Assembly (NCBI RefSeq): GCF_964213995.1
Contig: NW_027590190.1
Span: forward strand, 496,001-560,000
Source: Mustelus asterias
Taxonomy: Eukaryota
Length of the DNA: 64,000 nucleotides
Direction: 5' to 3'
Shown here: positions 27,913-49,964 of the stretch, in pieces
Layout: each line of letters starts with the position of its first letter
Numbering within the stretch: the stretch's first letter is position 1
Position numbers and translations under genes: made by a program
Notes under the pieces: generated by a model
The model's database searches: none
Told to the model about the DNA's origin: nothing
The model's input: only the letters and a program-made list of their open reading frames with translations

Positions 27913-27965
<53 letters not shown>

Positions 27966-28250
27966 CAGTTTCTAAGTGTGTGCAAGTGTCTATTTCAATG
28001 TGTGTTTCTGTGTGTGTGATTGTGTTTCTCTGCGTGTGTCTGTGAGTGAGTGTCTGTGTCTGTGTGTGTGTCTCTCTCTGGGTCTTTGTGCATGTGTGTC
28101 TGTGAGTGTGTGTTTGTGTCTCTCTGCGTGTGTGTCTGTGTGTCTCTCTCTTTGTCTATGTGTGTGTGTCTATGAGTGTGTGTGTGTGTCTGTATCTCTG
28201 TGAGTGCGTCTGTGTGTGTGTGTGTCTATGAGTGTGTGTGTGTGTTTGTG

Positions 28251-30603
28251 TGTGTTTGTCATGATCTGTTTGAGTGGGGGAGCAGGCTCGATGGGTCAAA
28301 TGGCCTCCAACTGCACATATTTGAGATTCAAATACATTGACACACATGCATGCTCACACACACACACACACACACACAGAAAGATATACACAGTATTGAC
28401 ATATTTATTGACCATTTAATGTGACTGAATGCTACACATCCTGGTTTGCCGATGACACAAAACATTAGACAGCATTGTAAGCAGCGCAGCTGGAAACATC
28501 ACATTGGAAAGAGTTATTCATATTTTGTACATGGACAAAACTGGTGGAGAGGTTTCAGTGCAGGGAAATGTAAACTGACACAACTTAGATTTAAAAGGGA
28601 TAGAACAACGTACTTTAATAAATGATGAAATGACAGAAACAGTGGAAGCTCCAAATGTCCAGATATTTCACAGCTGAATTCGTACAATACACACAGCAAT
28701 GGATCTGATATTGCGGAATTGTTGTAAATGTGGTTAATCTCAGTACGGAGGCTGTATTCATGTTACAATGTTAACCTGATCACTCTCATCAAAACAGGGT
28801 CAACATTTCTGTACAATGTGAGTGAATCATCAGCTCAAATAGTTCAGGTTCAATGTTTAAAATAACCAGTCACTTTTCTGTGGCTGCTTTGGGAATGTCT
28901 CTCTACACCCTACCTATGACTGCAACACTACATTCTGCACCCTCTCTTTTACTTCTCCCCAATGTACTCTATGAACGGTATGTTTTGTCTGTACAGCATA
29001 CAAGAAACAATACTTTTCACTGTATCCCAATACATGCGACAATAATAAATCAAATCAAATTAAAATCCTCCCAATTCTTTCCTCCACGATAGGTCGCAGC
29101 ATTTAAAGAACACGCCCAGGGCCCAGTGCTGAGTCTGAGGGTATCTGACTACAGTAAGGTGAGTGATACAGGAGGGTCTCACTGTCTGAGGGAGGTGAGT
29201 CTTAGCCGGGGGGTGCGTGAGTGACCCAGGTTAATCTGACACTCCAGGGACAGTTGGAATGGAGCTTTCCCCCGGGCTGTCCCCTCCCCGTGTCTGCGTG
29301 GGTTTCCTCCGGGTGCTCCGGTTTCCTCCCACAGTCTGAAAGATGTGCTGGTTAGGGTGCATTGGCCGTGCTAAATTCTCCCTCAGTGTAACCCGAACAG
29401 GCGCCGGAGTGTGGGGACTAGGGGATTCTCACAGTAACTTCATTGTAGTGTTAATGTAAGTCTACTTCTGACACTAATAAATAAACTGAAACTGAAGGTC
29501 AAGGTGCTGCTGTGACAATGCACTCTTGTTTAAACACTCTGCAATGCTGAGACTGGGAGAAGTGACCAACAGGGGGCAGCATTGCAGCTTCTGTCCCCCT
29601 ATTGAAACTGGGATTGTTGCTCCATCTGCTGCACAATCCCAACCCCATCCACTGGGGGCAATCTGGACAATGGCTGCAGACAGACCTCACTGCGCGTGCG
29701 CCGCAATGACACCCACCGCCGGCGGCCATTTTGCGTTGCCAAGGGAGACGGCCAGCGGCCATATTCCGTTGCCAAGGGAGGCGGCGGCGGCGACCATCTT
29801 GCGTTGCCAGGGGAGACGGCATCAATGCGGCGGCGTCCCGCGCGCTGACCTCTGGGAGCATTCCCGTCCCGCACATGCGCACAGGTCGCCCCGCCCCCTC
29901 GACAGACCCCCCTGCTGTCCCGCCAACGAGCATGGGCCGGAGTGGGCAAGAGGTGACACTGGGAGGAGCAGCCCCCGGGAGCGTCACAGCGACACCTGGT
30001 GGCCAGGAAGGGCAATAGCAGCAGCACAGTCTCTGCCCAAAGGCTTCCCCAGTTCAGCTGCTCAGAGACACTGGGAATGTCTTCAAGTGGAAACTTCAGC
30101 TTCTCACATTCACCCCCTGTGTTCAGTCATTGTTTCCTAGACAACCTCTGTAGTGACATCACAAACAACTTGTTCACACTGAAGGCCATGGCAATCTGGA
30201 CCATTCGGCTTCAAAGCCATTGAGCTTTGAAATTTCAATTGAAATGTTGGAGATGAGAGTTTATCGATGCAAGTCATGTTGCATGTGGAACGCTCACGAT
30301 GCCACAATTAGAGCGGTGCAGACATCTCACAGGGTTGTGTGACTGGAGGAGATGTCAGAGACGGGGTGGTTAAATATAGAGGGACAGGGTCTGAAGCTAA
30401 GTTTTGGGTAAAAGATGGCAGTAATGTTGTGACATTAATTTAGCTTCAGATAGTTGCTGGGGAGGGGGATAGAGAGGTTGGGGAGTGTGTTTGTATTGGG
30501 GCAATCTCTCTCTCTCTCTCTCATCATGTATATATATGAATCCATCTCTCACTCTCTATCTCTCTTTACCCATTGTGTCCAGAGTCTTGTGAAGGCGCAG
30601 ACC
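28251..30603 (+). repeat. Segmental duplication unit 3 (internally deleted, ends at Tx1 junction)
   Basis: 28251-28898 matches 12141-12918; 28899-30603 matches 23941-25645. Confidence 0.9.
29689..29882. promoter_or_regulatory. NRF1/YY1/RFX-like promoter (copy 3)
   Basis: Paralog of 24731-24923. Confidence 0.6.
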
Positions 30604-31714
30604 GGCGGAGAGGGGGGCTGTGGACGCCGGGGTGACCAGAATCGGGGACGTGCTCGATGAGAGAGGGGCGGGCTGGATGAGTCCCCGCGTGCTGGCTGAG
30701 CGCGCGGGGATGTCCGTCTGGCGCGCGGCCAAAGCCATCCTAGACCTTAGGACGGTCGTGCTCGGCCCCGAAACTGCACGCAAACTTGAGACGGCGCAGG
30801 CGTGCGGTGGGATCCCGCCCGAGCGTTCCCCTGTTCGGGCGGAATTCCACATTGGCCCAAAGCCTCAGCCCCCTCCCCTGGGTGAGGTGCCCCACAGCCT
30901 GAGCCGCCTCGCGGAAATGCCCTCCGTGCCTTTTTCTACCGCGCGGAGGCGTTTCCTGTGCGGGCTGCTGCTGCACACCCTCCACTACCGCCTCCTCGCC
31001 TGTCGCCCGGATACACCTTGGCGGGCCTTGTTGCCGCCGGGCGGCGGAGGTCCCCGCTGGAGGTCCCTCTACGGAGGGATCTCCCCCAATTACGTCGGGG
31101 ACCTGGGGTGGAGGGTGATGCATGCAGCAGTTCCGCACAACCGTAGGATTCACTGGTTCACGGGCTCCCAAGACTGCCCTTTCTGCGGCCTTGTGGAGTC
31201 CGTGGACCATGTCTATGTTGAGTGTCTTAGGCTGCACTCCCTTTATGTTTTCCTGAAGAACCTTTTATTGATGTTTTGTTTGCACTTCAGTCCCACGCTC
31301 CTGATCTACGGACACCCGGTGCGGAGAGGGGAGGGTCGGGATGGCGACCTCCTCGTGAACCTGCTCCTGGGCCTGGCGAAACGTGCCATTTACCGGTCCA
31401 GGCAGCGGGCGATCGAGGGGGCCGTCCATCCTGACTGTCTTCCCCTCTACCACAGCTACGTTCGCGGCCAGGTGTCCCTGGAGAGGGAGCATGCGGTGTC
31501 CACGGGCGAGGTTGACGCTTTCCGCGCCCGCTGGGCACCGCAGGGGTTGGGGTGCATTATTGACCCTAATAATCACATTTTAATTTGATGTTTTTAAGTT
31601 TCCTTTGCATTTTGATTTCTGTTCGGGCTGTTCCCCCTCCTTTTTGGGGAGCTGCCCCTTTTACTTTGTCCTGATTTAATTTGAGTTTGTTTACTTGGTT
31701 TGACCTAAAAAGAG
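30604..31714 (+). mobile_element. Tx1-clade non-LTR retrotransposon copy A (5'-truncated)
   Basis: Last ~325 codons of ORF2 (stop 31588) plus 3' UTR, near-identical to 37858-38968. Confidence 0.95.
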
Positions 31715-31746
31715 GTCTCTCTCTGAATGAAGATTGAGCTTCAGAC
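31715..31746 (+). repeat. Target/TSD motif 1
   Basis: gtctctctctgaatgaagattgagcttcagac between copies A and B. Confidence 0.85.
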
Positions 31747-32038
31747 GGCCTGAAACGTGCCTCCTCTGGGGCAGCGCCTGCACTTTGTTTCCGGGGTGAG
31801 GTGGATTCGTGTTCGCCCGAGTAGCGGGGGGCCCCGGGTCGGAGCCGGGCGGAAACTGTGGGTTTGTTTTCTTTTCTTTTTTTGTGAGTACCTTTATTTT
31901 TTTTTTCTCTCGTTTTTGCTCACGGAGACGCCCGGTTTTTGTTTTTGTTTTGTTGGGTTTGTTTGTTTTTCGCTCCCTGCGGGGAGGAAGGAGGGAGGTG
32001 AGCTGCTGCCTGCCTTGCCCGGCCTGCCTGTTGCCTGC

Positions 32039-32400
32039 CTGCCTGCCGTCTGGCCTGCTTACCTGCCTGCCGTCTGGCCTGCTTACCTGCCTGCCTGCCG
32101 TCTGGCCTGCTTACCTGCCTGCCTGCCGTCTGGCCTGCTTACCTGCCTGCCTGCCGTCTGGCCTGCTTACCTGCCTGCCTGCCGTCTGGCCTGCTTACCT
32201 GCCTGCCTGCCGTCTGGCCTGCTTACCTGCCTGCCTGCCGTCTGGCCTGCTTACCTGCCTGCCTGCCGTCTGGCCTGCTTACCTGCCTGCCTGCCGTCTG
32301 GCCTGCTTACCTGCCTGCCTGCCGTCTGGCCTGCTTGCCTGCCTGCCTGCCGTCTGGCCTGCCTGCCGGCCTGCTTGCCGTCTGGCCTACCTGCCGTCTG
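32039..32400 (+). repeat. 28-bp CCTG-rich tandem repeat in Tx1-B 5' UTR (~11-12 units)
   Basis: Unit ctgccgtctggcctgcttacctgcctgc. Confidence 0.9.
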
Positions 32401-32824
32401 GACTGCCTGACTGCCTGCTTGCCTGCCATCCGGCCTCTGGGGGGTGCGCTCTCCCCGGGGGGGGGGGGGGGGGGGAGGAAGAGAGGACAGGGAGTGACTG
32501 GAGGAGAGGGGGGGGGCGAAGGCGTTTGGACTGTCTCTTTTCCATCTGCAGTGGGGGGGGTGAAGACCTTTCCTATTTCCCCTACCCACTACTGCTGCCC
32601 CCAGGACCGGCACCCCCTCCCCTTTTCCCTCCTGACTGGGGCACCGGCCTTGTGCCTCATCTCCCTCCTGCTCCTCCAACCTCCTCTCTCCCTCTCTCGC
32701 TCCGGGGAGAGAGCACCTACACCCTTCCCCGCCTACCCCACCCTGCCTTATCTTCCCCATCCCACATACGCCCTGCCGTGCATCTGGGCAGTCTCGGGGT
32801 GGGCGTAGCACTTCCCCTGATACC

Positions 32825-34920
32825 ATGGCGACATCACCAGCGTCGCCGGTGGCAGGGCCTTCTCGGCCCACCTATGCGGGCGTGGCGGCTGCCAGAGCCC
32901 CCGCCGCTCCCAAGGCCCTGCCGCCATTCTCTTTAATCACGCGGCAGCTCGGGGTGAAGTGCTACGCCCACCCCGACATGTCTATCGAGGCCTGCGTTAA
33001 GGCAATGGCTGGGGTTGTCGGCCCCTCAGCCATTGTCGCGGCCTCGAAGATGTACGGCCGGGCTGTATTCTTCCTGAAGGCCGAGCGGGCGGTTCGCCTC
33101 GCCCTGGAAAAGGGGCTCACGGTGGGCGGGACGTTCCTGGCGGTGGACCCATTGGAGGCCACCGCCCACAAGATAGTAATATCAAACGTCCCGCCCTTCC
33201 TACCGAGTGAGCTCCTCCTCCCCCACCTCCATCTACTGGGGGAGGTCAGGTCCGGGGTGCAGCCGATCCCGCTCGGCCTTCGGGACCCCTCCCTCCGCCA
33301 CATATACTCCTTCCGGCGCCAGGTTTTTGTCCGCCTGGCCCGGGAGGAGGAACTGGAGGGAGGGTTCAATGTCCCCCACGAGGGGACCACGTACCGGGTC
33401 TTTTGGTCCGCGGACGGTGTGCGGTGCCATGCCTGTAAGGAGGCGGGGCACGTGAGAAAAAACTGCCCCGTCTCCAAGGCCGCCGACCACCAACCCAAGG
33501 CGGCCGCAGCTGGCACCGCAGCCCCCTCTCCCCCCAAGCGAGTACCATCTGCCCCCCCGCGAGGGGAGGCCACGCCGGCAGCAGCTGCCACCTCAGCTGC
33601 CGGCGGGGGGGGAGCGGAGCCCCCGCGCGGCCAAAAGGCCCATAAGGGACCTACAAAAAAGAAGGGGGGTACCGGAACCCCGGCCCCCAGGGAAAACACC
33701 CCAACCACCCCGGCAGCCGGCTCGGGGACCGCCTCAGTCTCCACCTGCGCCCCCCCCCCACCACCACCATCTGCCGGGCCCGTGGGCTCTCCGGGGCCTA
33801 GTGCTGGGTCCGGCGCCCGGGATCATGGGCCCGAGCATGGGGGGGTAAGCGACCCCGAGCCGGCAAAACTGGCGACGCCGCCACCTCGGGGGGACGTGAC
33901 GGGAGAGCAGGGGGGGCGCGGCAAGGCGAAGAGGGGCGGAGGGCGAGGGGCCTCGCCTGCCCGAGGGCAGGTTAACAAAAAGAGGCGGGGCCCCTCGGGC
34001 ACCGTAGAGTCCGAGGTCTGCGTGCCCCTCCCCCCTTGTGAGTCATCTCCTGCCGTGCCCCCACCTGTCTTTGTGCCTTGTCCCCAGAAAAAAGGGGGCA
34101 AGGCACCCTGTAAATCCAAGCATGTGTTGCCTCAGTCCCCCGGCGAGGAGTCTCCGGGGCCGGGTGGCAGCGGGGCCCCCACGGTTCCGTTCCACCCGGC
34201 CGGTTACAACCCGGAGTTCTTCTTCAGTCTGTCGGGGGACTGGGGCGACACTCCAATGTTCATGTCCTCGTGCGGCGGCGGCGAAGAGACGATCCACTCG
34301 TCCTCTCCGTCCCGACCTTGGACGCTGGACATCCCCAACCTCAGTCCGAAGGATACACCGGACCTGGGGGGTGTCCAAGCGTCTGGGGCGGGGGGGGGGC
34401 GGCTGGGCCGCCGTCGCACGGGGGCCCGCAATCCGGGAAAGGTGAGCCCGGGGGGAACCCCTCCTCCACCGATCCTGGGGGTGGGATCGGGGAGGGGCTA
34501 GGGCTAGTTGGTGGCTCCGTGCCGCCCGCCGTACGTCCTGCGGCGGGGGACTCGGAGTCGAGGGGCGACCGCCCTGAGGAGGTCAGCGGCTCGGTGGAGG
34601 GCACGGGGACACTTTCAGAGTCTGCCCAGAGCGAGGCGGGGGACTCCCTCGTGCCCCCCACCGAGTCGTCCCTCATCCCCTCCAAGGACCTCAGGGTCTT
34701 TATCCGTAACCATTCCGGTCGCTCCGACATAATCCGGCTAGCCCTCGGCCACTGGCCGGACCTGGCGCAGCTCGTCCGGTCCGTGAAGGCATGCTCGCAT
34801 GCCTCCGCGGGCCTGGAGAAAATAGAGCGGCGCTGGGTACTGCGGTTCCTCCACAGGCTCGAAAAGGTGGGGGGTGGACTGGTGAGAATTGCGCCAGCGC
34901 CCCCCCACACACCTAGTTAA
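32825..34920 (+). CDS. Tx1 ORF1 (gag-like, zinc knuckle), copy B; one frameshift in the G run near 34390-34399
   Basis: SIEACVKAMAGVVGPSAIVAASKMYG resembles Tx1 ORF1; CCHC knuckle CHACKEAGHVRKNC; copy C is in frame across this G run. Confidence 0.85.
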
Positions 34921-34948
34921 GTGGTGACGGTGGCACAAAGCTGCTGAC

Positions 34949-37900
34949 ATGAAGGTGACCATAGCCAGCCTCAACATCAACGGCAGCAGTGGGCCACACC
35001 GCAGGTTCCAGAACTTCTCGGTCCTCCGTGACGGGAAGTATGCGGTGTGTTTCCTGCAGGAAACCCACACCGTTCCGGGAGACGAAGCCCAATGGCTCCT
35101 GGAGTGGCGAGGGGGGGTCTACATGAGCCACCTCACGCTCGCTTCTTGCGGGGTGGCTATCTTGTTGGCCCCGCGTTATAAGCCGGAGATCTTGGGGGTC
35201 AAGGAGCCGGTGCCAGGCCGGTTGCTGCACTTGACGGTCCGTGAGGGGGGCGTGGTCATTCACTTGCTGAATGTCTACGCCCCGACCGCTGGACCGCAGC
35301 AAACGACTTTCTACGAGAAAGTGTCCGCTCACATCGACACCATCGCGGGGGGCGAATGCATTATCCTCGGGGGAGATTTCAACTGCATCCTCGAGGCACG
35401 GGACCGCACCGGCCCCTGGCTGCGCACTCCGGCGGTGGTGAAGTTGCGGGACCTGATCGGGTCCCACGACTTGGTGGACGTCTGGAGACATCTCCATCCT
35501 GGCTCCAGCGCCTTCACTTTCGTGAGGCCTGGAGTCGGAGCGTCCAGGCTCGACCGCCTTTACATTTCGAAGGCGCACGTGTCCGGCGTGTCCTCGGTCT
35601 CCATGCGGCCGGTGTCGAGCACGGACCACAGCCTGGTGTGGGCGGACTTTGCGCCGTCTCGCATCCGGCGGGGGTCCGCGTACTGGCACTTTAACAACAC
35701 GCTGCTGGAGGACGAGCACTTCCTGGACTCGTTCCGTCGATTCTGGGCCGGCTGGAGAAGGAAGCGGGGAGGCTTCCCCTCCTTGAGGCTCTGGTGGGAT
35801 GTGGGCAAGACTCACGTCTGTACCTTCTGTCAGGGGTACGCGAGGGGGTCGACAAAGAGGCGGAAATCCAGGCTCGAGGAGTTGGAGAAGGAGGTGCTCG
35901 ACCTGGAGGCACGTCTCAGTCGGCCTGACGCGGACCCGGCCCTGCGTTCGGAGTACAGGGAGAAGAAGGACGCGCTGCGAGACCTGCAGCTTGCCAGGTC
36001 TCGCGGCGCGTACGTGAGGTCGCGGCTCCAGTTCCAGGTGGACCTGGACCGCGGCTCCCCCTTCTTCTACTCGCTGGAAAGAGGGCGGGCTAACCGTCAG
36101 CAGCTCCTTACGCTGCTGGCCGACGACGGTTCCCCCGTCTCGGATCCGGAGGGCATCCGGGCCATTGCCCGGGAGTATTACACCTCGCTCTTCTCTCCGG
36201 ATCCGTCCAGCGAGGATGCCCGCAGACTTCTGTGGGAGGACCTGCCGCAGGTCAGCCCGGAGGGCGTCGGCAGGCTCGAGGCCCCTACCACCATGGCCGA
36301 GCTGACCGGCGCCCTAAATGGCCTCAGCCGGGGCAAGGCCCCTGGGCTGGACGGGCTGACAGTAGAGTTCTTCAGGGCGTTCTGGGACGTCCTGGGGAGC
36401 GACTACGCGGGGGTCCTGGGGGAGAGCGTCGCTACCGGGGAGATGCCCCTTTCGTGGCGCAGGGCCGTCATTGCCCTGCTGCCCAAGAAGGGGGATCTCC
36501 ACCTGCTCAAGAACTGGCGCCCGGTCTCCCTCCTCAGCACGGATTATAAAATCTTTGCCAGGGCTATGGCTTCACGCCTTGGATCCGTGCTGGACCACTT
36601 GATCCACCCTGACCAGTCCTACACGGTCCCGGGCCGTTGCATACATGACAATCTCCACCTGGTCCGGGACCTAATCCATCACACCCAGAGGGCTGGTCTG
36701 TCGGGCGCCTTCTTGTCATTAGATCAGGAGAAGGCGTTCGACAGGGTGGAGCACGAGTATTTACTCGGGACTCTGCGGGCATTCGGGTTCGGGACGCATT
36801 TTGTCGCCCGGATCCGATTACTGTACTCTGCCGCAGAGTGTGTGATTAAGGTTAACGGGTCCCTGACGGCGCCCCTTCGCTTCGGGAGAGGAGTACGGCA
36901 GGGCTGCCCCTTGTCCGGCCAACTGTATTCCGTATGCGTGGAGCCATTCCTGCGCCTCTTGCGGAGGAGGTTGTCAGGTTTGGTCCTGCGCGGACCGGAC
37001 GTAGGGGTGGTCCTGTCAGCTTACGCCGACGACGTGCTCCTCATGTTCACGGACCCGGCTGACCTGCGGAGGATGCGAGAATGCCAGGCGGTGTACTCCG
37101 CCGCGTCCTCCGCCAGGATCAACTGGGCCAAGTGCTCCGGACTCCTTGTCGGTCCTTGGGAGACGGACCCCCTCCCGGAGGAGCTCAGGCCTTTCACCTG
37201 GAGCAGGACCGACCTCCTCTACTTGGGGGCCCATCTCTGCCCAGCCGAGGAATCCTGGCCAGCGAACTGGCGGGAGCTGGAGGCCAAAGTCTCCGCCCGC
37301 CTGGGTCGCTGGACAGGACTGCTCCGAGTGCTGTCCTACGGGGCGCGAGCTCGCGTCATAAACCAGCTGGTCGCCTCCATGCTGTGGTACCGGCTGGTCC
37401 CTTTGACCCCTCCCCCTGGCTTTGTCACCGATATCCAGAGAACCCTCGTGCGGTTCTTCTGGGGCAATCGACTGCACTGGGTCCCTGCTGCGGTCCTGTA
37501 TCTCCCGCTTGAGGAGGGCGGACAAGGTCTGGTGTGCCTCCGCACTCAGATAGCGACCTTCCGCCTCCAGGCCCTACAGAGGTACCTTTACGTTGAGCCC
37601 CCTCCACAGTGGTGTGCCATGGCGACGTATTTCTTCCGCCAGTGGCACGGCCTCAATTATGACGTGCAGCTCCTGCATATCGAACTGGGGCGTGCTTCGA
37701 CCGCCCTGCAGGAGTTGCCCGTCTTTTACCAGGACCTCCTCACTGTCTGGAACAAGGTCGCCTCGCGACGCAGCTCTCCCCCGTCAGGAGTAGCGGCTCT
37801 CGTGCGAGAGCCGCTGCTCAGGAATCCGCTCCTCCAGCCGTATAACTTCAGGTGGCTGGCGGAGAGGGGGGCTGTGGACGCCGGGGTGACCAGAATCGGG

Positions 37901-38842
37901 GACGTGCTCGATGGCGGAGGAGCGGGCTGGATGAGTCCCCGCATGCTGGCTGAGCGCGCGGGGACGTCCGTCCGGCGCGCGGCCAAAGCCATCCTAGACC
38001 TTAGGACGGTCGTGCTCGGCCCCGAAACTGCACGCAAACTTGAGACGGCACAGGCGTGCGGTGGGATCCCGCCCGAGCGTTCCCCTGTTCGGGCGGAATT
38101 CCACATTGGCCCAAAGCCTCAGCCCCCTCCCCTGGGTGAGGTGCCCCACAGCCTGAGCCGCCTCGCGGAAATGCCCTCCGTGCCTTTTTCTACCGCGCGG
38201 AGGCGTTTCCTGTGCGGGCTGCTGCTGCACACCTTCCACTACCGCCTCCTCGCCTGTCGCCCGGATACACCTTGGCGGGCCTTGTTGCCGCCGGGCGGCG
38301 GAGGTCCCCGCTGGAGGTCCCTCTACGGAGGGATCTCCCCCAATTACGTCGGGGACCTGGGGTGGAGGGTGATGCATGCAGCAGTTCCGCACAACCGTAG
38401 GATTCACTGGTTCACGGGCTCCGAAGACTGCCCTTTCTGTGGCCTTGTGGAGTCCGTGGACCATGTCTATGTTGTGTGTCTTAGGCTGCACTCCCTTTAT
38501 GTTTTCCTGAAGAACCTTTTATTGATGTTTTGTTTACACTTCAGTCCCACGCTCCTGATCTACGGACACCCGGTGCGGAGAGGGTCGGGTCGGGATGGCG
38601 ACCTCCTCGTGAACCTGCTCCTGGGCCTGGCGAAACGCGCCATTTACCGGTCCAGGCAGCGGGCGATCGAGGGGGCCGTCCATCCTGACTGTCTTCCCCT
38701 CTACCGCGGCTACGTTCGCGGCCAGGTGTCCCTGGAGAGGGAGCATGCGGTGTCCACGGGCGAGGTTGACGCTTTCCGCGCCCGCTGGGCACCGCAGGGG
38801 TTGGGGTGCATTATTGACCCTAATAACCACATTTTAATTTGA
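34949..38842 (+). CDS. Tx1 ORF2: APE endonuclease, reverse transcriptase and C-terminal CCHC; intact 1297 aa
   Basis: SLNING, FLQETH, GGDFN, RLDRLY, TDH (APE); KNWRPVSLL, LDQEKAFDRV, GVRQGCPLS, YADD (RT); CPFC..H..C. Confidence 0.97.
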   Translation: MKVTIASLNINGSSGPHRRFQNFSVLRDGKYAVCFLQETHTVPGDEAQWLLEWRGGVYMSHLTLASCGVAILLAPRYKPEILGVKEPVPGRLLHLTVREGGVVIHLLNVYAPTAGPQQTTFYEKVSAHIDTIAGGECIILGGDFNCILEARDRTGPWLRTPAVVKLRDLIGSHDLVDVWRHLHPGSSAFTFVRPGVGASRLDRLYISKAHVSGVSSVSMRPVSSTDHSLVWADFAPSRIRRGSAYWHFNNTLLEDEHFLDSFRRFWAGWRRKRGGFPSLRLWWDVGKTHVCTFCQGYARGSTKRRKSRLEELEKEVLDLEARLSRPDADPALRSEYREKKDALRDLQLARSRGAYVRSRLQFQVDLDRGSPFFYSLERGRANRQQLLTLLADDGSPVSDPEGIRAIAREYYTSLFSPDPSSEDARRLLWEDLPQVSPEGVGRLEAPTTMAELTGALNGLSRGKAPGLDGLTVEFFRAFWDVLGSDYAGVLGESVATGEMPLSWRRAVIALLPKKGDLHLLKNWRPVSLLSTDYKIFARAMASRLGSVLDHLIHPDQSYTVPGRCIHDNLHLVRDLIHHTQRAGLSGAFLSLDQEKAFDRVEHEYLLGTLRAFGFGTHFVARIRLLYSAAECVIKVNGSLTAPLRFGRGVRQGCPLSGQLYSVCVEPFLRLLRRRLSGLVLRGPDVGVVLSAYADDVLLMFTDPADLRRMRECQAVYSAASSARINWAKCSGLLVGPWETDPLPEELRPFTWSRTDLLYLGAHLCPAEESWPANWRELEAKVSARLGRWTGLLRVLSYGARARVINQLVASMLWYRLVPLTPPPGFVTDIQRTLVRFFWGNRLHWVPAAVLYLPLEEGGQGLVCLRTQIATFRLQALQRYLYVEPPPQWCAMATYFFRQWHGLNYDVQLLHIELGRASTALQELPVFYQDLLTVWNKVASRRSSPPSGVAALVREPLLRNPLLQPYNFRWLAERGAVDAGVTRIGDVLDGGGAGWMSPRMLAERAGTSVRRAAKAILDLRTVVLGPETARKLETAQACGGIPPERSPVRAEFHIGPKPQPPPLGEVPHSLSRLAEMPSVPFSTARRRFLCGLLLHTFHYRLLACRPDTPWRALLPPGGGGPRWRSLYGGISPNYVGDLGWRVMHAAVPHNRRIHWFTGSEDCPFCGLVESVDHVYVVCLRLHSLYVFLKNLLLMFCLHFSPTLLIYGHPVRRGSGRDGDLLVNLLLGLAKRAIYRSRQRAIEGAVHPDCLPLYRGYVRGQVSLEREHAVSTGEVDAFRARWAPQGLGCIIDPNNHILI

Positions 38843-38968
38843 TGTTTTTAAGTTTCCTTTGCATTTTGATTTCTGTTCGGGCTGTTCCCCCTCCTTTTTG
38901 GGGAGCTGCCCCTTTTACTTTGTCCTGATTTAATTTGAGTTTGTTTATTTGGTTTGACCTAAAAAGAG

Positions 38969-38996
38969 GTCTCTGAATGGAGATTGAGCTTCAGAC
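38969..38996 (+). repeat. Target/TSD motif 2
   Basis: gtctctgaatggagattgagcttcagac between copies B and C. Confidence 0.85.
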
Positions 38997-39249
38997 GGCC
39001 TGAGACGTGCCTCCTCTCGGACAACACCCAGTTTTGTTTCCGGGGTGAGGTGGATTCGTGTTCGCCCGTGTAGCGGAGGGCCCCGGGTCGGAACCGGGCG
39101 GAAACTTTGGGAGGGAGGTGAGCTGCTGCCTGTTGCCTGGCCTGCCTGTCGCCTGACCTGCCTGCCTGTCGCCTGGCCTGCCTGTCGCCTGGCCTGCCTG
39201 TCGCCTGGCCTGCCTGTTGCCTGGCCTGCCGCCTGGCCTGCCTGCCGCC

Positions 39250-40290
39250 TGGCCTGCTTACCTGCCTGCCTGCCGTCTGGCCTGCTTACCTGCCTGCCGT
39301 CTGGCCTGCTTACCTGCCTGCCTGCCGTCTGGCCTGCTTACCTGCCTGCCTGCCGTCTGGCCTGCTTACCTGCCTGCCTGCCGTCTGGCCTGCTTACCTG
39401 CCTGCCTGCCGTCTGGCCTGCTTACCTGCCTGCCTGCCGTCTGGCCTGCTTACCTGCCTGCCTGCCGTCTGGCCTGCTTACCTGCCTGCCTGCCGTCTGG
39501 CCTGCTTACCTGCCTGCCTGCCGTCTGGCCTGCTTACCTGCCTGCCTGCCGTCTGGCCTGCTTACCTGCCTGCCTGCCGTCTGGCCTGCTTACCTGCCTG
39601 CCTGCCGTCTGGCCTGCTTACCTGCCTGCCTGCCGTCTGGCCTGCTTACCTGCCTGCCTGCCGTCTGGCCTGCTTACCTGCCTGCCTGCCGTCTGGCCTG
39701 CTTACCTGCCTGCCTGCCGTCTGGCCTGCTTACCTGCCTGCCTGCCGTCTGGCCTGCTTACCTGCCTGCCGTCTGGCCTGCTTACCTGCCTGCCGTCTGG
39801 CCTGCTTACCTGCCTGCCTGCCGTCTGGCCTGCTTACCTGCCTGCCTGCCGTCTGGCCTGCTTACCTGCCTGCCTGCCGTCTGGCCTGCTTACCTGCCTG
39901 CCTGCCGTCTGGCCTGCTTACCTGCCTGCCTGCCGTCTGGCCTGCTTACCTGCCTGCCTGCCGTCTGGCCTGCTTACCTGCCTGCCTGCCGTCTGGCCTG
40001 CTTACCTGCCTGCCTGCCGTCTGGCCTGCTTACCTGCCTGCCTGCCGTCTGGCCTGCTTACCTGCCTGCCTGCCGTCTGGCCTGCTTACCTGCCTGCCTG
40101 CCGTCTGGCCTGCTTACCTGCCTGCCTGCCGTCTGGCCTGCTTACCTGCCTGCCTGCCGTCTGGCCTGCTTACCTGCCTGCCTGCCGTCTGGCCTGCTTA
40201 CCTGCCTGCCTGCCGTCTGGCCTGCTTACCTGCCTGCCTGCCGTCTGGCCTGCTTACCTGCCTGCCTGCCGTCTGGACTGCCTGCCTGCC
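39250..40290 (+). repeat. 28-bp tandem repeat in Tx1-C 5' UTR (~36-37 units)
   Basis: Same unit as copy B, expanded. Confidence 0.9.
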
Positions 40291-40779
40291 TGCCGTCTGG
40301 GCTGCCTGCCGTCTGGACTACCTGCCTGCCTGCTTGCCGTTTGGCCTACCTGCCGTCTGGACTGCCTGACTGCCTGCTTGCCTGCCATCCGGCCTCTGGA
40401 GGGTGCGCTCTCCCCGGGGGGAGGGAGGAAGAGAGGACAGGGAGTGACTGGAGGAGAAGGGGGGGGGGGCGAAGGCGTTTGGACTGTCTCTTCTCCATCT
40501 GCAGGGGGGGGGGTGAAGGCCTTTTCCTAATTCCCCTACCCACTGCTGCTGCCCCCGGGACCGGGACCCCCTCCCCTTTTTCCCTCCTGACTGGGGCACC
40601 GGCCTTGTGCCTCATCTCCCTCCTGCTCCTCCAACCTCCTCTCTCCCTCTCTCGCTCCGGGGAGAGAGCACCTACACCCTTCCCCGCCTACCCCACCCTG
40701 CCTTATCTTCCCCATCCCACATACGCCCTGCCGTGCATCTGGGCAGTCTCGGGGTGGGTGTAGCACTTCCCCTGATACG

Positions 40780-42875
40780 ATGGCGACATCACCAGCATCG
40801 CCGGTGGCAGGGCCTTCTCGGCCCACCTATGCGGGCGTGGCGGCTGCCAGAGCCCCCGCCGCTCCCAAGGCCCTGCCGCCATTCTCTTTAATCACGCGGC
40901 AGCTCGGGGTGAAGTGCTACGCCCACCCCGACATGTCTATCGAGGCCTGCGTTAAGGCAATGGCTGGGGTTGTCGGCCCCTCAGCCATTGTCGCGGCCTC
41001 AAAGATGTACGGCCGGGCCGTATTCTTCCTGAAGGCCGAGCGGGCGGTTCGCCTCGCCCTGGAAAAGGGGCTCACGGTGGGCGGGACGTTCCTGGCGGTG
41101 GACCCATTGGAGGCCACCGCCCACAAGATAGTAATATCGAACGTCCCGCCCTTCCTACCGAGTGAGCTCCTCCTCCCCCACCTCCATCTACTGGGGGAGG
41201 TCAGGTCCGGGGTGCAGCCGATCCCGCTCGGCCTTCGGGACCCCTCCCTCCGCCATATTTACTCCTTCCGGCGCCAGGTTTTTGTCCGCCTGGCCCGGGA
41301 GGAGGAACTGGAGGGAGGTTTCAATGTCCCCCACGAGGGGACCACGTACCGGGTCTTTTGGTCCGCGGACGGTGTGCGGTGCCATGCCTGTAAGGAGGCG
41401 GGGCACGTGCGGAAAAACTGCCCCGTCTCCAAGGCCGCCGACCACCAACCCAAGGCGGCCGCAGCTGGCACCGCAGCCCCCTCTCCCCCCAAGCGAGTAC
41501 CATCTGCCCCCCCGCGAGGGGAGGCCACGCCGGCAGCAGCTGCCACCTCAGCTGCCGGCGGGGGGGGAGCGGAGCCCCCGCGCGGCCAAAAGGCCCAGAA
41601 GGGACCTACAAAAAAGAAGGGGGGTACCGGAACCCCGGCCCCCAGGAAAGACACCCCAACCACCCCGGCAGCCGGCTCGGGGACCGCCTCAGTCTCCACC
41701 TGCGCCCCCCCCCCACCACCACCACCATCTGCCGGGCCCGTGGGCTCTCCGGGGCCTAGTGCTGGGTCCGGCGCCCGGGATCATGGGCCCGAGCATGGGG
41801 GGGTAAGCGACCCCGAGCCGGCAAAACTGGCGACGCCGCCACCTCGGGGGGAAGTGACGGGAGAGCAGGGGGGGCGCGGCAAGGCGAAGAGGGGCGGAGG
41901 GCGAGGGGCCTCGCCTGCCCGAGGGCAGGTTAACAAAAAGAGGCGGGGCCCCTCGAGCACCGTAGAGTTCGAGGTCTGCGTGCCCCCCCCCCTTGTGAGT
42001 CATCTCCTGCCGTGCCCCCACCTGTCTTTGTGCCTTGTCCCCAGAAAAAAGGGGGCAAGGCACCCTGTAAATCCAAGCATGTGTTGCCTCAGTCCCCCGG
42101 CGAGGAGTCTCCGGGGCCGGGTGGCAGCGGGGCCCCCACGGTTCCGTTCCACCCGGCCGGTTACAACCCGGAGTTCTTCTTCAGTCTGTCGGGGGACTGG
42201 GGCGACACTCCAATGTTCATGTCCTCGTGCGGCGGTGGCGAAGAGACGATCCACTCGTCCTCTCCGTCCCGACCTTGGACGCTGGACATCCCCAACCTCA
42301 GTCCGAAGGATACACCGGACCTGGGGGGTGTCCAAGCGTCTGGGGCGGGGGGGGGGGCTGGGCCGCCGTCGCACGGGGGCCCGCAATCCGGGAAAGGTGA
42401 GCCCGGGGGGAACCCCTCCTCCACCGATCCTGGGGGTGGGATCGGGGAGGGGCTAGGGCTAGTTGGTGGCTCCGTGCCGCCCGCCGTACGTCCTGCGGCG
42501 GGGGACTCGGAGTCGAGGGGCGACCGCCCTGAGGAGGTCAGCGGCTCGGTGGAGGGCACGGGGACACTTTCAGAGTCTGCCCAGAGCGAGGCGGGGGACT
42601 CCCTCGTGCCCCCCACCAAGTTGTCCCTCATCCCCTCCAAGGACCTCAGGGTCTTTATCCGTAGCCATTCCGGTCGCTCCGACATAATCCGGCTAGCCCT
42701 CGGCCGCTGGCCGGACCTGGCGCAGCTCGTCCGGTCCGTGAAGGCATGCTCGCATGCCTCCGCGGGCCTGGAGAAAATAGAGCGGCGCTGGGTACTGCGG
42801 TTCCTCCACAGGCTCGAAAAGGTGGGGGGTGGACTGGTGAGAATTGCGCCAGCGCCCCCCCACACACCTAGTTAA
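40780..42875 (+). CDS. Tx1 ORF1, copy C; frameshift in the C run near 41983-41992
   Basis: Same N-terminus as copy B; continues in ORF 42012-42875. Confidence 0.8.
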
Positions 42876-42903
42876 GTGGTGACGGTGGCACAAAGCTGCT
42901 GAC

Positions 42904-45900
42904 ATGAAGGTGACCATAGCCAGCCTCAACATCAACGGCAGCAGTGGGCCACACCGCAGGTTCCAGAACTTCTCGGTCCTCCGTGACGGGAAGTATGCGG
43001 TGTGTTTCCTGCAGGAAACCCACACCGTTCCGGGAGACGAAGCCCAATGGCTCCTGGAGTGGCGAGGGGGGGTCTACATGAGCCACCTCACGCTCGCTTC
43101 TTGCGGGGTGGCTATCTTGTTGGCCCCGCGTTATAAGCCGGAGATCTTGGGGGTCAAGGAGCCGGTGCCAGGCCGGTTGCTGCACTTGACGGTCCGTGAG
43201 GGGGGCGTGGTCATTCACTTGCTGAATGTCTACGCCCCGACCGCTGGACCGCAGCAAACGACTTTCTACGAGAAAGTGTCCGCTCACATCGACACCATCG
43301 CGGGGGGCGAATGCATTATCCTCGGGGGAGATTTCAACTGCATCCTCGAGGCACGGGACCGCACCGGCCCCTGGCTGCGCACTCCGGCGGTGGTGAAGTT
43401 GCGGGACCTGATCGGGTCCCACGACTTGGTGGACGTCTGGAGACATCTCCATCCTGGCTCCAGCGCCTTCACTTTCGTGAGGCCTGGAGTCGGAGCGTCC
43501 AGGCTCGACCGCCTTTACATTTCGAAGGCGCACGTGTCCGGCGTGTCCTCGGTCTCCATGCGGCCGGTGTCGAGCACGGACCACAGCCTGGTGTGGGCGG
43601 ACTTTGCGCCGTCTCGCATCCGGCGGGGGTCCGCGTACTGGCACCTTAACAACACGCTGCTGGAGGACGAGCGCTTCCTGGACTCGTTCCGTCGATTCTG
43701 GGCCGGCTGGAGAAGGAAGCGGGGAGGCTTCCCCTCCTTGAGGCTCTGGTGGGATGTGGGCAAGACTCACGTCCGTACCTTCTGTCAGGGGTACGCGAGG
43801 GGGTCGACAAAGAGGCGGAAATCCAGGCTCGAGGAGTTGGAGAAGGAGGTGCTCGACCTGGAGGCACGTCTCAGTCGGCCTGACGCGGACCCGGCCCTGC
43901 GTTCGGAGTACAGGGAGAAGAAGGACGCGCTGCGAGACCTGCAGCTTGCCAGGTCTCGCGGCGCGTACGTGAGGTCGCGGCTCCAGTTCCAGGTGGACCT
44001 GGACCGCGGCTCCCCCTTCTTCTACTCGCTGGAAAGAGGGCGGGCTAACCGTCAGCAGCTCCTTACGCTGCTGGCCGACGACGGTTCCCCCGTCTCGGAT
44101 CCGGAGGGCATCCGGGCCATTGCCCGGGAGTATTACACCTCGCTCTTCTCTCCGGATCCGTCCAGCGAGGATGCCCGCAGACTTCTGTGGGAGGACCTGC
44201 CGCAGGTCGGCCCGGAGGGCGTCGGCAGGCTCGAGGCCCCTACCACCATGGCCGAGCTGACCGGCGCCCTAAATGGCCTCAGCCGGGGCAAGGCCCCTGG
44301 GCTGGACGGGCTGACAGTAGAGTTCTTCAGGGCGTTCTGGGACGTCCTGGGGAGCGACTACGCGGGGGTCCTGGGGGAGAGCGTCGCTACCGGGGAGATG
44401 CCCCTTTCGTGGCGCAGGGCCGTCATTGCCCTGCTGCCCAAGAAGGGGGATCTCCACCTGCTCAAGAACTGGCGCCCGGTCTCCCTCCTCAGCACGGATT
44501 ATAAAATCTTTGCCAGGGCTATGGCTTCACGCCTTGGATCCGTGCTGGACCACTTGATCCACCCTGACCAGTCCTACACGGTCCCGGGCCGTTGCATACA
44601 TGACAATCTCCACCTGGTCCGGGACCTAATCCATCACACCCAGAGGGCTGGTCTGTCGGGCGCCTTCTTGTCATTAGATCAGGAGAAGGCGTTCGACAGG
44701 GTGGAGCACGAGTATTTACTCGGGACTCTGCGGGCATTCGGGTTCGGGACGCATTTTGTCGCCCGGATCCGATTACTGTACTCTGCCGCAGTGTGTCTGA
44801 TTAAGGTTAACGGGTCCCTGACGGCGCCCCTTCGCTTCGGGAGAGGAGTACGGCAGGGCTGCCCCTTGTCCGGCCAACTGTATTCCGTATGCGTGGAGCC
44901 ATTCCTGCGCCTCTTGCGGAGGAGGTTGTCAGGTTTGGTCCTGCGCGGACCGGACGCAGGGGTGGTCCTGTCAGCTTACGCCGACGACGTGCTCCTCATG
45001 TTCACGGACCCGGCTGACCTGCGGAGGATGCGAGAATGCCAGGCGGTGTACTCCGCCGCGTCCTCCGCCAGGATCAACTGGGCCAAGTGCTCCGGACTCC
45101 TTGTCGGTCCTTGGGAGACGGACCCCCTTCCGGAGGAGCTCAGGCCTTTCACCTGGAGCAGGACCAACCTCCTCTACTTGGGGGCCCATCTCTGCCCAGC
45201 CGAGGAATCCTGGCCGGCGAACTGGCGGGAGCTGGAGGCCAAAGTCTCCGCCCGCCTGGGTCGCTGGACAGGACTGCTCCGAGTGCTGTCCTACGGGGCG
45301 CGAGCTCGCGTCATAAACCAGCTGGTCGCCTCCATGCTGTGGTACCGGCTGGTCCCTTTGACCCCTCCCCCTGGCTTTGTCACCGATATCCAGAGAACCC
45401 TCGTGCGGTTCTTCTGGGGCAATCGACTGCACTGGGTCCCTGCTGCGGTCCTGTATCTCCCGCTTGAGGAGGGCGGACAAGGTCTGGTGTGTCTCCGCAC
45501 TCATAGCGACCTTCCGCCTCCAGGCCCTGCAGAGGTACCTTTACGTTGAGCCCCCTCCACAGTGGTGTGCCATATTTCTTCCGCCAGTGGCACGGCCTCA
45601 ATTATGACGTGCAGCTCCTGCATATCGAACTGGGGCGTGCTTCGACCACCCTGCAGGAGTTGCCCGTCTTTTACCAGGACCTCCTCACTGTCTGGAACAA
45701 GGTCGCCTCGCGATGCAGCTCTCCCCCGTCAGGAGTAGCGGCTCTTGTGCGAGAGCCGCTGCTCAGGAATCCGCTCCTCCAGCCGTATAACTTCAGGTGG
45801 CTGGCGGAGAGGGGGGCTGTGGACGCCGGGGTGACCAGAATCGGGGACGTGCTCGATGGCGGAGGAGCGGGCTGGATGAGTCCCCGCGTGCTGGCTGAGC

Positions 45901-46787
45901 GCGCGGGGACGTCCGTCCGGCGCGCGGCCAAAGTCATCCTAGACCTTAGGACGGTCGTGCTCGGCCCCGAAACTGCACGCAAACTTGAGACGGCGCAGGC
46001 GTGCGGTGGGATCCCGCCCGAGCGTTCCCCTGTTCGGACGGAATTCCACATTGGCCCAAAGCCTCAGCCCCCTCCCCTGGGTGAGGTGCCCCACAGCCTG
46101 AGCCGCCTCGCGGAAATGTCCTCCGTGCCTTTTTCTACCGCGCGGAGGCGTTTCCTGTGCGGGCTGCTGCTGCACACCCTCCACTACCGCCTCCTCGCCT
46201 GTCGCCCGGATACTCCTTGGCGGGCCTTGTTGCCGCCGGGCGGCGGAGGTCCCCGCTGGAGGTCCTTCTACGGAGGGATCTCCCCCAATTACGTCGGGGA
46301 CCTGGGGTGGAGGGTGATGCATGCAGCAGTGCCGCACAACCGTAGGGTTCACTGGTTCACGGGCTCCGAAGACTGCCCTTTCTGTGGCCTTGTGGAGTCC
46401 GTGGACCATGTCTATGTTGTGTGTCTTAGGCTGCACTCCCTTTATGTTTTCCTGAAGAACCTTTTGTTGATGTTTTGTCTGCACTTCAGTCCCACGCTCC
46501 TGATCTACGGACACCCGGTGCGGAGAGGGGAGGGTCGGGATGGCGACCTCCTCGTGAACCTGCTCCTGGGCCTGGCGAAACGCGCCATTTACCGGTCCAG
46601 GCTGCGGGCGATCGAGGGGGCCGTCCATCCTGACTGTCTTCCCCTCTACCGCGGCTACGTTCGCGGCCAGGTGTCCCTGGAGAGGGAGCATGCGGTGTCC
46701 ACGGGCGAGGTTGACGCTTTCCGCGCCCGCTGGGCACCGCAGGGGTTGGGGTGCATTATTGACCCCAATAATCACATTTTAATTTGA
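42904..46787 (+). pseudogene. Tx1 ORF2, copy C, frameshifted
   Basis: Relative to copy B: 2-bp deletion near 45504 and 8-bp deletion near 45574. Confidence 0.9.
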
Positions 46788-46918
46788 TGTTTTTAAGTGT
46801 CCTTTGTACTTTGATTTCTGTTCGGGCTGTTCCCCCTCCTTTTTGGGGAGCTGCCCCTTTTACTTTGTCCTGATTTAATCTGAGTTTGTTTACTTGGTTT
46901 GGTTTGACCTAAAAAGAG

Positions 46919-46979
46919 GTCTCTCTGAATGAAGATTGAGCTTCAGACAGACTCAAACTTCCTCCTGTCTTCAACATCT
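46919..46979 (+). other. Target motif 3 continuing as putative exon 1 of the downstream ZNF gene
   Basis: Motif 46919-46948, then host sequence ending at donor ct|GTGAGT (46980); ATG at 46929. Confidence 0.6.
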
Positions 46980-47064
46980 GTGAGTAAAACACTTTCTTTT
47001 CTCACCCTTTCCATTTATTTTCTCATTCTGGGGGAAATTGTTGACTTGCAGCAACTGATCACGA

Positions 47065-47860
47065 GAAATAGAAGCAGGAGTGGCCACCAGGCCTTTGAAG
47101 CCTGTCCCGCCATTCAATCCGATCATGGCTGACTGATGCCGGTTTCAACTCCTTTACTGTGCCATTTCCCCATAGCCCTCTATTACCCAATCTTTCAAAT
47201 ATGTATCCACCTCCACTTTAAATACTTCTAACGATCCAGCCTCCACCACCCTTTGGGGCGGAGAATTCCAGAGCTTCATCATCCTCTGTGAGAAGAAATT
47301 CCTGCACACCTCAGTTTTAATGACTGACCCTTTATTTTGTTTGAGACTCTCCCACTCGTGAAAGTATCTCACCATCTACCCTGTCAAGCCCACTCAGGAT
47401 CTGAAATGTTTCAATAACCCCTTTGTCTTCAAAACTTCAAGGAACACAGGCCTTGACAATTTACTCCCTCTTGATAGGACAACCCTCCTATCCCAGGAAT
47501 TAGCTTGGTGAATTTCCTTTGGACTATGTCCAATATTACTATATCCTTGTTTAGATAAGGGGATCGAAACTGTATGCATTATCCCGGGTGAGGCATCACC
47601 AACACACTGTACAGTTGCAACAAAACCTCCCTGTTTTTAAACTCCAACCTCTTTGCAATAAAAGCCAAAATGCCATTTTCCTTCTTAACTCGTGTGGGAC
47701 CTGCCTGCTAGCTTTTTGTGATTCATGCACAAGAACACCAAGATCCCTCTGTACTTCACTCACCGGCAGCCTCTCTCATTTAGATAATCTCCCTGTTGAT
47801 TCCTCCTACTGAAATACATGACCTCACACTTCCCCACTTTAAACTCCATTTGCCACGTTT
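47065..47860 (-). mobile_element. Decayed CR1 fragment in ZNF intron (V-SINE follows at ~47915-48172, -)
   Basis: RNFFSQRMMKLWNS motif. Confidence 0.7.
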
Positions 47861-48937
47861 TGAAGACAGAGGGGTGACTTTATTGCATCTTCCCCAACTC
47901 TTGACTCATCTTTCCCAGGCCCTATCCCTGTAGCCCCACATTTTTACCCCACTAATCCACCTAATCTACATCTATTGGGACACAAAGGGGCAATTTAGCA
48001 TGGCCAATCAATCTAACCCGCACATCTTTGGACTGTGGGAAGAACCTGGAGCACTCAGAAATCCACACAGACATGGAGAGAATGCGCATACTCCACACAG
48101 ACTGTCACCGGGATTGAACCTGGGTCCCTGGCACTGTGAGGCAGCAGTGCTAACCACTGTGCTGCCATGGCACCCTTTTTAAATAAACTACAAGCACAGA
48201 TTTCTCTCGATCTACTTATATCTTCTTATATCCTCAAACAAATTGAGCAAATTTGTCAAACATAATTTATCTTTCATAGAACCATGTTGACGAGGTTTGA
48301 TTCTATTCAGCTTTCCTCAATGATTAGCTATTTGCTCTTTGATTATTGACTCCAGCGTCTTGCCAATAATAGATATTAAATTAACTGGCCTTATAGATCC
48401 CTGCCTTCTGCCTTTCTCCCTTTTTGACCAAGGTAGTCACATTGGCTGATTGCCAATCTTCTGATCTCTCCCGAAATCTAGCAAGTTACAAAAAATTTCA
48501 ACAAAATTCTCCACAATCTCTTCAGCAACCTCCATTAAAAAGCTAGCGTGCAGTTCATTGGGTCCTGGTGACTTATCCGCCCTTAGCCACTGAAGGGAAA
48601 GGAAGTGAGCCCAGTCTGTATATTTCAGACATTTTTGGTCCAGTCATATAGACATATATCTGTCTGGCCGCCTGCATGGAGATTCCCAGCTCTCTGTGTC
48701 CAGGACAGGAAGCAGTGAGCATGGATCTGTCAATCAGCCTCAATCAGCACCTTCAGGAGAATTGAGAGGGTGAATATTAGATACAGCAGAGTGAGAATGG
48801 AGGGAGAGTGTGTGGGATGGAGATTTACAGTTTTTGGGGAATGAGAGAGAAAAGAATGTTCCATAGAAACTAGAATTGTCTGTTCTGAATTTCTATCCTG
48901 TGCTGACATTGATGACTTTTGTAAATTCCTTTTACAG

Positions 48938-49789
48938 GATTTCAGAAGGTGAGAATTTATAGACAGAAATCTCAAACCAAACTTCACATCAATATCTGAC
49001 AGAGTCACTCAATTCATTGGGACTGAATATCACTGACCTTTGAATCTCGAAGGGGAAATGTTTCTCTGTTCTGTCAGCTTTTGAAGATTTTAAGCATCTG
49101 TGTGACTGGAAAAGCACCGAGACACACACACACCTGAGTAAGAGTGCTCCAGTGCACTGAGTGTGGAAAGAGCTTTAACCAGTTACACAGCCTGAAAATA
49201 CATCGCAGCATTCACAGCGGGCAGAGACTGCACCCATGGTCTGTGTGAGATTTAACTGATTGTTTAAACTACAGAGTCACAAGGACCCGAACCATGGAGA
49301 AACCGTGGAAATGTGTGGACTGTGGGAAGGGATACATGTGCCCATCTCGGCTGGAAATTCATCGACGCAGTCACACTGGGGAGAGGCCCTTCAGCTGCTC
49401 TGTGTGTGGGAAGGGATTCACTCAGTCATCCGAACTGCGGGATTCACACTGGGGAGAGGCCATTCTCCTGCTGTGTGTGTGGGAAGAGATTCACTCAGTT
49501 ACCCAGCCTGCAGATACACCAGCGAGTTCACACTGGGGAGAAGCCGTTCACCTGCTGTGTGTGTGGGAAGAGATTCAGTCAGTTATCCAACCAGCAGAGA
49601 CACCAGCGCCTTCACACTGGGAAGAGGCCATTCACCTGCAGTGTGGGTGGGAAGGGATTCACTCAGTTATCCAGCCTGCAGACACACCAGCGAGTTCACA
49701 CTGGGGAGAGGCCATTCACCTGCTCTCAGTGTGGGAAGGGATTCAGAGTTTCATCCCAGCTGCTGAGACACCAAGAAATTCACGAGTGA
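48938..49789 (+). pseudogene. C2H2 zinc-finger gene 3, coding exon; ~6 fingers from ATG 49294, frameshift near 49438
   Basis: Acceptor ttttacag|g resembles the exon starts at 10617 and 25845; MEKPWKC...HTGERPF repeats in two frames; one Cys>Gly finger. Confidence 0.85.
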
Positions 49790-49964
49790 TTCCAGGGGTT
49801 GGATTCTGCTGTTATTGTTTCTGCTCTCAATTACATCCAGAACTGCATTTAGTTCATTCTCACAGTTGGTCAATGGGGAGGGTCAGAGGGTTTCTTTCTG
49901 CTGGACTGGCCGGTCTCACCATTTTGCCTCCAGTGGCTGGTGCTCGGAAGTTAAGAGATATTTA

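Follow-up and report, generated by a model that had tools for sequence, protein, structure and literature searches.

A Tx1-clade retrotransposon with a preference for exon 1 of a C2H2 zinc-finger gene family in the shark Mustelus asterias

Layout of the Locus

The window, meaning here the whole stretch of 64,000 nucleotides of Mustelus asterias DNA that was analyzed, contains three copies (A, B, and C) of a retrotransposon, followed on the same strand by an exon of a C2H2 zinc-finger (ZNF) gene (Table 1). The sequence CTAAAAAGAG terminates at 31714, 38968, and 46918 and one common motif adjoins all three 3′ ends, as the first-pass annotation of this DNA had reported. Its further reading, that the motif leads twice into the 5′ end of a next element and once into the host, is borne out as well, with GGCCTGA following at 31747 and 38997 and host sequence following the motif at 46918. 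The G directly after CTAAAAAGAG is the element's own, such that the element end is AAAAAGAGG and target duplications (TSDs) begin beyond that G. The donor that had been predicted shortly 3′ of the third motif, with a ZNF exon downstream, is also present on the + strand (GT at 46980, AG ending at 48937). Exon 1 of the host gene is non-coding, and the finger ORF begins in exon 2.

Table 1. Features of the locus, in window coordinates
Feature	Position	Strand	Basis or remark
Segmental-duplication block 5′ of copy A, including ZNF exon 25930–26454	20541–30603 (left end provisional)	.	97–99% identical at 10 other loci, same junction into A
Copy A, 3′ fragment (1112 bp) of a Tx1 element fused to ZNF intron sequence, within the duplicated block	30604–31715	+	
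A/B junction motif, copy of ZNF exon 1 start, largely the leader carried by B	31716–31746	+	
Copy B, full-length Tx1 element	31747–38969	+	
Diverged copy of remaining ZNF exon 1 at the 5′ end of copy B	31747–31786	+	Alignment A1 to host exon 1
Degenerate tRNA-Val-derived segment of copy B	31787–31856	+	Aligns with tRNA heads of sister subfamilies
Donor-like site GAG/GTGAGC, 5′ UTR of copy B	31993–32003	+	Putative donor; 58/60 copies; retrocopy L151 ends there
CCTG-rich tandem array of variable length, 5′ UTR of copy B	32005–32430	+	
ORF1 of copy B, 558 aa	32825–34501	+	CCHC knuckle visible in sequence; intact copies ~700 aa
ORF2 of copy B, open, 1297 aa, APE endonuclease and reverse transcriptase	34949–38842	+	PF03372, PF00078
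B/C junction motif	38970–38996	+	
Copy C, full-length, 5′ UTR variant unlike that of B, longer CCTG array, ORF2 frameshifted near 45540	38997–46919	+	
Host ZNF exon 1, insertion point to donor, non-coding	46920–46979	+	Same sequence element-free behind CCAAT/GGAA promoters; spliced retrocopy L020
Host ZNF intron 1 (predicted)	46980–48937	+	GT..AG ends; absent from L020
Host ZNF exon 2, C2H2 fingers, frameshifted in the window copy	48938–49790	+	

Copies B and C are both full-length and 98.0% alike, and each has closer relatives elsewhere than the other; indeed, the ORF2 region of B is nearer to 37 other copies than to C, in agreement with the earlier view that the two are not a simple tandem duplicate. 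The same annotation had taken copy A to be an independent insertion here, and this does not hold, as its 5′ junction is identical at 10 other loci examined. At those loci the junction is duplicated together with up to 10 kb of upstream DNA and with differing downstream partners, hence copy A is a segmental duplicate and the elements likely act as recombination points. A long 5′ transduction, in which copy A and its upstream DNA would have been inserted together at the site, was also considered; the left ends have neither target nor TSD and segmental duplication was preferred.

Positions 1 to 30604 of the window form a mosaic of internal duplications that are 95–98% identical, and two further ZNF exons (10702–11436 and 25930–26454) have no exon 1 of their own inside the window. 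The donor-like GAG/GTGAGC recurs at 39113–39123 in addition to 31993–32003, and is found in sister subfamilies too, while an acceptor-like CAG lies 3′ of the CCTG array at 32551. A tRNA call on the tRNA-Val-derived segment gave none in the one copy tested of the window's subfamily (L175).

Identity of the Element

ORF2 of copy B matches PF03372 at 6–227 and PF00078 at 512–760, and a Pfam search of its ORF1 gave no match. The best full-length named relatives of ORF2 are turtle elements (50%) and Xenopus Tx1L (49%), with identity to Tx1L rising to 61% in the reverse transcriptase (RT) region, and the best solved-structure matches of the endonuclease are L1-EN and the chimera of L1-EN that carries the Tx1L loop. 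In an RT tree of 23 rows, rooted at the midpoint and built without an L1 outgroup, the element is sister to a stingray sequence (100/99) within a set of eight rows that includes Xenopus Tx1L (100/99). The APE and RT domains and this grouping bear out the membership in the Tx1 clade that the first-pass annotation had assigned. The R2 clade is defined by a restriction-like endonuclease and a single ORF; what is found here is an APE domain and two ORFs. Copies show the signature of TPRT, namely a fixed 3′ end, variable 5′ truncation, and a TSD, which was accepted in 38 of 70 inspected ends of the TC type (defined below) and measured 14–15 bp in 26 of those. Both ORFs are open in 13 of 42 complete copies. 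In a tree of 3′ ends, the subfamily of the window (S1) forms one supported clade (96/90) nested among older types, with copies on and off the target intermixed in one young clade. Judged from these sequences, the element is a young Tx1-clade LINE subfamily.

The Host Target Is Exon 1 of a Multicopy ZNF Family

The 23-nt core of the motif has 444 exact matches in the genome, clustered on few contigs, versus none for a reversed control, and so its recurrence is not due to chance. The first 30 of these matches are all element-free, and most have CCAAT and GGAA boxes upstream and a GTGAGT-type donor downstream, the donor pattern itself occurring in at least 897 exact copies. The CCAAT, GGAA/ETS, and Inr labels used for these promoters are putative. 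When ten empty sites were followed for ~10 kb, nine had C2H2 fingers on the same strand and several of them long open arrays. Hence the motif does occur without the element, and empty motifs do lie upstream of ZNF exons, two of the points on which the earlier proposal of a ZNF target had been made to depend. Among 33 filled sites, 14 had homology to exon 2 within 1.4–3.8 kb, and among 30 empty sites 11 did.

The splice predicted between 46979 and 48938 is supported by locus L020, a spliced retrocopy in which exon 1 is followed without a gap by the counterpart of the window sequence from 48938 onward. A search for further spliced retrocopies returned a single match (L342), which has no exon context, and in a comparison of four contig sets with 45800–49900 an intronic SINE dominated the matches, and the exon 1–2 joint was absent among the joints listed.

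Insertion Shows a Strong but Leaky Preference

The 18-nt 3′ end of the element has 1433 matches in the genome, the first 30 of which are dispersed and have flanks starting with GCA, ACA, CCA, or TC. S1 is the TC type and was counted through its GAGG-TC ends (n = 298), of which 132 (44%) adjoin the motif and 166 lie without an exact one. Fifteen of the 132 belong to one mini-array on contig C89 and copy A recurs at 11 loci, so that the share of independent insertions is somewhat lower, about 39% once the mini-array and the known copy-A repeats are dropped. Kojima's rule for a target-specific Tx1 element asks for one sequence in more than 20% of flanks, and both values lie above it. The earlier claim that the element strongly targets the first exon of a ZNF gene family with many copies is thus confirmed by the 132 ends, and the strict sequence specificity claimed with it is contradicted by the other 166 and by most of 70 TC ends inspected. 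Four of these 70 were variants of the motif or motif-bearing and 66 lay elsewhere, mostly as short copies with TSDs of 14–15 bp. Hence over half of the S1 3′ ends are dispersed, mostly truncated and at weak TC sites, and targeting is leaky, a preference and not a strict specificity.

Full-length copies are distributed differently from the dispersed ends. Among 104 5′ ends genome-wide, all 60 full-length ones that were fetched come after the motif (as do 30/30 in an overlapping smaller set), and of 42 complete copies 38 have the motif at their 3′ end, namely 36 from the main count together with L187 and L220, in both of which it is the first 3′ end that adjoins the motif. Counted by eye, 21 of 25 on-target but only 13 of 66 off-target copies reach at least 1.5 kb (Fisher p = 2e-8). 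An ORF1 search that ignored the 5′ end placed nearly all of its best 150 matches on the same ZNF-cluster contigs; of six matches fetched outside them, four lay in satellite, one was a truncated older copy, and one followed a ZNF-type promoter.

The off-target sites yield a matrix, TSCT-N-YYY/TCTV, of about 7.5 bits, 3.4 of which are forced by the search pattern, with no preference past +4. Exon 1 scores well on it, yet the matrix predicts less than one hit on up to 2000 ZNF sites where dozens are seen, which means that something else concentrates insertions there. One might think of an element directed to (TC)n microsatellites that meets exon 1 merely through its short TC run, given that the site opens with 2–5 TC units and that the teleost Tx1 element Kibi targets (TC)n (PMC4494074). 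However, at least three TC units stand at the start of only 2 of 66 off-target flanks, with three more in L169, and the RT groups with Tx1L, apart from the two named teleost pol-like proteins in the tree, so that this idea is largely refuted and we give it next to no credence.

Do these counts reflect many insertions, or a few old ones multiplied by segmental duplication of ZNF clusters and homogenized by gene conversion, without real targeting? Copy A does lie in a block duplicated at 11 loci, and some host flanks cluster at 97%. On the other hand, across 31 distinct terminal junctions the element tails are a median 98.8% alike whereas the 600-bp host flanks are 56% alike; these junctions fall into 16–24 host-flank groups, depending on the threshold, and 31 upstream promoters fall into 21 groups. 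Such diverse host flanks around elements that are ~99% alike argue that many insertions are independent. Two on-target copies that are truncated, L093 and L095, are flanked at the site by perfect TSDs of 14 bp; truncation points differ at the same base, as at L094 and L095, where hosts 97% identical hold one full-length copy and one 180-bp copy. Together with the mixing of on- and off-target copies in one young clade and with empty sites that number hundreds, these data make multiplication by duplication very improbable. With TSDs of 13–15 bp, the 28–32 bp motif is not itself the target duplication but is partly a leader captured by the element.

The Motif at Element 5′ Ends Appears to Be a Captured Exon Leader

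In 13 of 13 single insertions the motif copy at the 5′ end differs from the host copy at the 3′ end. Two 5′ motif variants, present in 36 of 60 copies, occur in none of 31 host 3′ sites, and one 5′ variant is paired solely with one UTR type (9/9). Over its first 40 nt the element can be aligned with the remainder of exon 1, after which comes a decayed tRNA-Val. We therefore read the motif at element 5′ ends as element-borne and travelling with the element, and note that recombination between elements could be an alternative source of the disagreement between 5′ and 3′ flanks.

Traces of transcription are also found. At L182 and L293, which represent one duplicated event, the leader begins some 35 nt 5′ of the site, at a point that resembles an initiator, and is joined there to unrelated DNA; we take this joint, known from that one event, as the putative start of the RNA. 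L151 is a poly(A) retrocopy made up of the tail, the motif, and 140 nt of the next 5′ UTR, ending exactly at GAG/GTGAGC; it spans a tandem junction, and a read-through RNA must hence have existed. Among the loci examined no copy was spliced at the donor-like site of the 5′ UTR. From these traces it seems likely that the element has no promoter of its own and is transcribed from the host ZNF promoter.

Sister Subfamilies Use a Second Site in the Same Exon

Older relatives with an intact tRNA-Val head are inserted 13 bp before the exon-1 donor (site 2), about 45 bp downstream of the S1 site (site 1). Site 2 is matched exactly by 86 of 431 ends of the CC type (20%), and in other variants of the exon the GC and AC types occupy that position too. 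Two patterns were used to look for further fixed sites of the ACA and GCA types and gave 0 and 1 match, both types using site 2 in other variants of exon 1. In the sister insertions L160, L162, L163, L164, L289, L292, and L294 the 5′ TSD copy and the first bases of the element re-create a donor-like GTGAG.

S1 likely arose from the older site-2 lineage by capturing the upstream part of the exon and shifting its site by 45 bp. In the simplest history, as we infer it, the capture came about through co-transcription and the shift followed. At residues 15, 67, and 191 the S1 endonuclease is unlike every one of nine sister copies read; residue 191 lies where the hairpin loop that has been connected with target choice has its base. 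This difference would suit the view of the first-pass annotation that the endonuclease itself reads a long site, as in Xenopus Tx1L, whose endonuclease nicks almost exclusively its own site in vitro (PMC1950540), with off-target insertion as a relaxed side reaction. Nevertheless, the S1 hairpin is three residues shorter than that of Tx1L, insertions also occur at host sites whose motif is altered, and preference at off-target sites ends at +4; a long site read by the endonuclease is thus unlikely.

A Proposed Mechanism of Targeting

We now put forward a mechanism, which we hold to be reasonably probable, in which full-length copies insert at one base of the non-coding ZNF exon 1, carry a diverged version of that exon at their 5′ end, are likely driven by the host promoter, and are aided in targeting by RNA homology. 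The position, the 14-bp TSDs of truncated copies, the captured exon, and the many independent host loci are its established part. Specifically, the ZNF promoter would drive transcription from about 35 nt 5′ of the site, through the element, and on into the flank. The APE domain would then nick a degenerate ~12-bp site, TSCT-N-YYY/TCT, that exon 1 matches well. The RNA would pair with the target on both sides of the nick, and because it matches both sides, priming and above all 5′ joining would be favored at exon 1. The leader would overwrite the host's upstream copy, so that the site is re-made before every full-length copy and head-to-tail stacks become possible. Elsewhere, the same machinery would yield mostly truncated, promoterless copies. 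We favor RNA pairing on two grounds, the overwriting of the host copy by the leader and the much higher proportion of long copies among on-target insertions.

It should be noted that homology accounts better for completion than for the choice of site. A possible though rather doubtful alternative is that targeting is regional, the ORF1p/ORF2p complex being tethered to, or finding, the open germline chromatin of ZNF promoters, with a weak endonuclease preference picking the base and the leader aiding 5′ joining only. Several subfamilies do use different bases of the same 60-bp exon, copy L196 lies antisense in a promoter, and tRNA-Arg and 5S-derived inserts occur within the same exon. Copies that lie at a different base of this exon or promoter, or on its opposite strand (L196, L202, L101, and L167), and the leaderless tRNA-Arg chimeras at site 2 (L109) are equally compatible with such tethering. 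However, one base dominates in each subfamily (132 ends at site 1, 86 at site 2), dispersed copies retain the bases with which the site of their subfamily opens (TC, CCA, GCA, and ACA), and most off-target flanks inspected are not recognizable as promoters.

Relation to Known Systems and Implications

Published lists of where site-specific LINEs insert name rRNA, tRNA, snRNA, and spliced-leader genes, transposons, microsatellites, and telomeres (PMC4640811, PMC4494074). Our search of full-text papers turned up no LINE, whether of the Tx1 clade or not, with specificity for exons of ZNF or other protein-coding genes; a named shark family may exist in Repbase or Dfam. Tx1L of Xenopus laevis (UniProt YTX2_XENLA, P0005) is similar in its two ORFs, APE and RT domains, ORF2 (49%), RT clade, and target preference. 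Tx1L inserts into the DNA transposon Tx1D (PMC4494074, PMC1950540), whereas the shark element targets exon 1 of host protein-coding genes, bears a copy of that exon as its leader, and has more than half of its 3′ ends outside the target. Keno, Tx1-Mar, and SINEU, whose targets are U2 genes or transposons and whose heads are U1/U2 (Kojima 2015, PMC4494074), share with it a multicopy target, tandem insertions around a target copy, 5′ heads derived from small RNAs, two preferred positions per target, and a proposed transcription from the flank (PMC4494074). Unlike theirs, the head of the shark element combines tRNA-Val with a host exon. The 5′ extension of SINEU-2A comes from introns of RING/B-box genes, which the account given there describes otherwise than as a target (PMC4494074). 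Kibi and Koshi, teleost elements of (TC)n and (TTC)n, are likewise of the Tx1 clade, and the shark site opens with a TC run; unlike them, the shark element is not directed to microsatellites and lies on another branch of the tree, as far as named proteins allow.

R2 depends on transcription of its target, and co-transcribed target sequence strengthens its specific integration (PMC4494074). R2 (and R1) in 28S rDNA would work alike in both respects, a likeness that for the shark element is drawn from genomic traces. In contrast to R2, with its restriction-like endonuclease and Pol I rDNA, it is an APE-bearing Tx1 element at a Pol II protein-coding gene family, which would be a new class of LINE target. 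A Tx1 lineage that prefers a novel type of target is well supported; it probably lives in the manner of R2, and the mechanism of its targeting is inferred. Tandem C2H2 ZNF families have been tied to transposon silencing in tetrapods and zebrafish (a word search of that source gave no shark data; PMC10547256), and an element in their exon 1 could therefore be a parasite of a defense system or a partner of it. Speculatively, we envisage a Tx1 lineage specialized on exon 1 of a transposon-repressing ZNF family (a role taken from other vertebrates) that uses germline promoters, inserts under guidance of RNA from its captured exon, has walked its target stepwise, supplies a donor that perhaps keeps the host gene working, and whose copies are recombination points that reshuffle ZNF clusters. 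The young sister subfamilies, with endonucleases ~90% identical and sites 45 bp apart, allow a direct test of what makes a LINE change its target (endonuclease, RNA homology, or tethering), for which no fewer than 13 copies that have both ORFs open could be assayed.

Related Insertions

A tRNA-Arg followed by its 3′ trailer and the last ~15 nt of Tx1 is inserted at site 2, with a TSD, at L109 (1560–1720), L211, and L215; these inserts are probably template-switch products and would show how a tRNA head can arise. A 5S rRNA-derived insert occupies another base of exon 1 at L093, L099, L108, and L228, and at L049 a truncated Tx1 copy is fused to a U2 snRNA fragment beside a second U2 copy. Mini-arrays stand at ZNF exon 1 at L167 (C89; 20 units of the motif and a 104-bp tail) and L168 (C71; about 19 tails of 250 bp). 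Older tandem relatives that have an exon-1 leader and no tRNA head (L002, L003, and L165, on C2) lie away from ZNF clusters. Off-target TC ends, among the first 100 listed, cluster at 15–40 Mb of C8 (13) and 6.17–6.20 Mb of C14 (5), and L282, L283, L286, and L287 are near full-length copies in an ATCCA-type satellite on C21 and C23.
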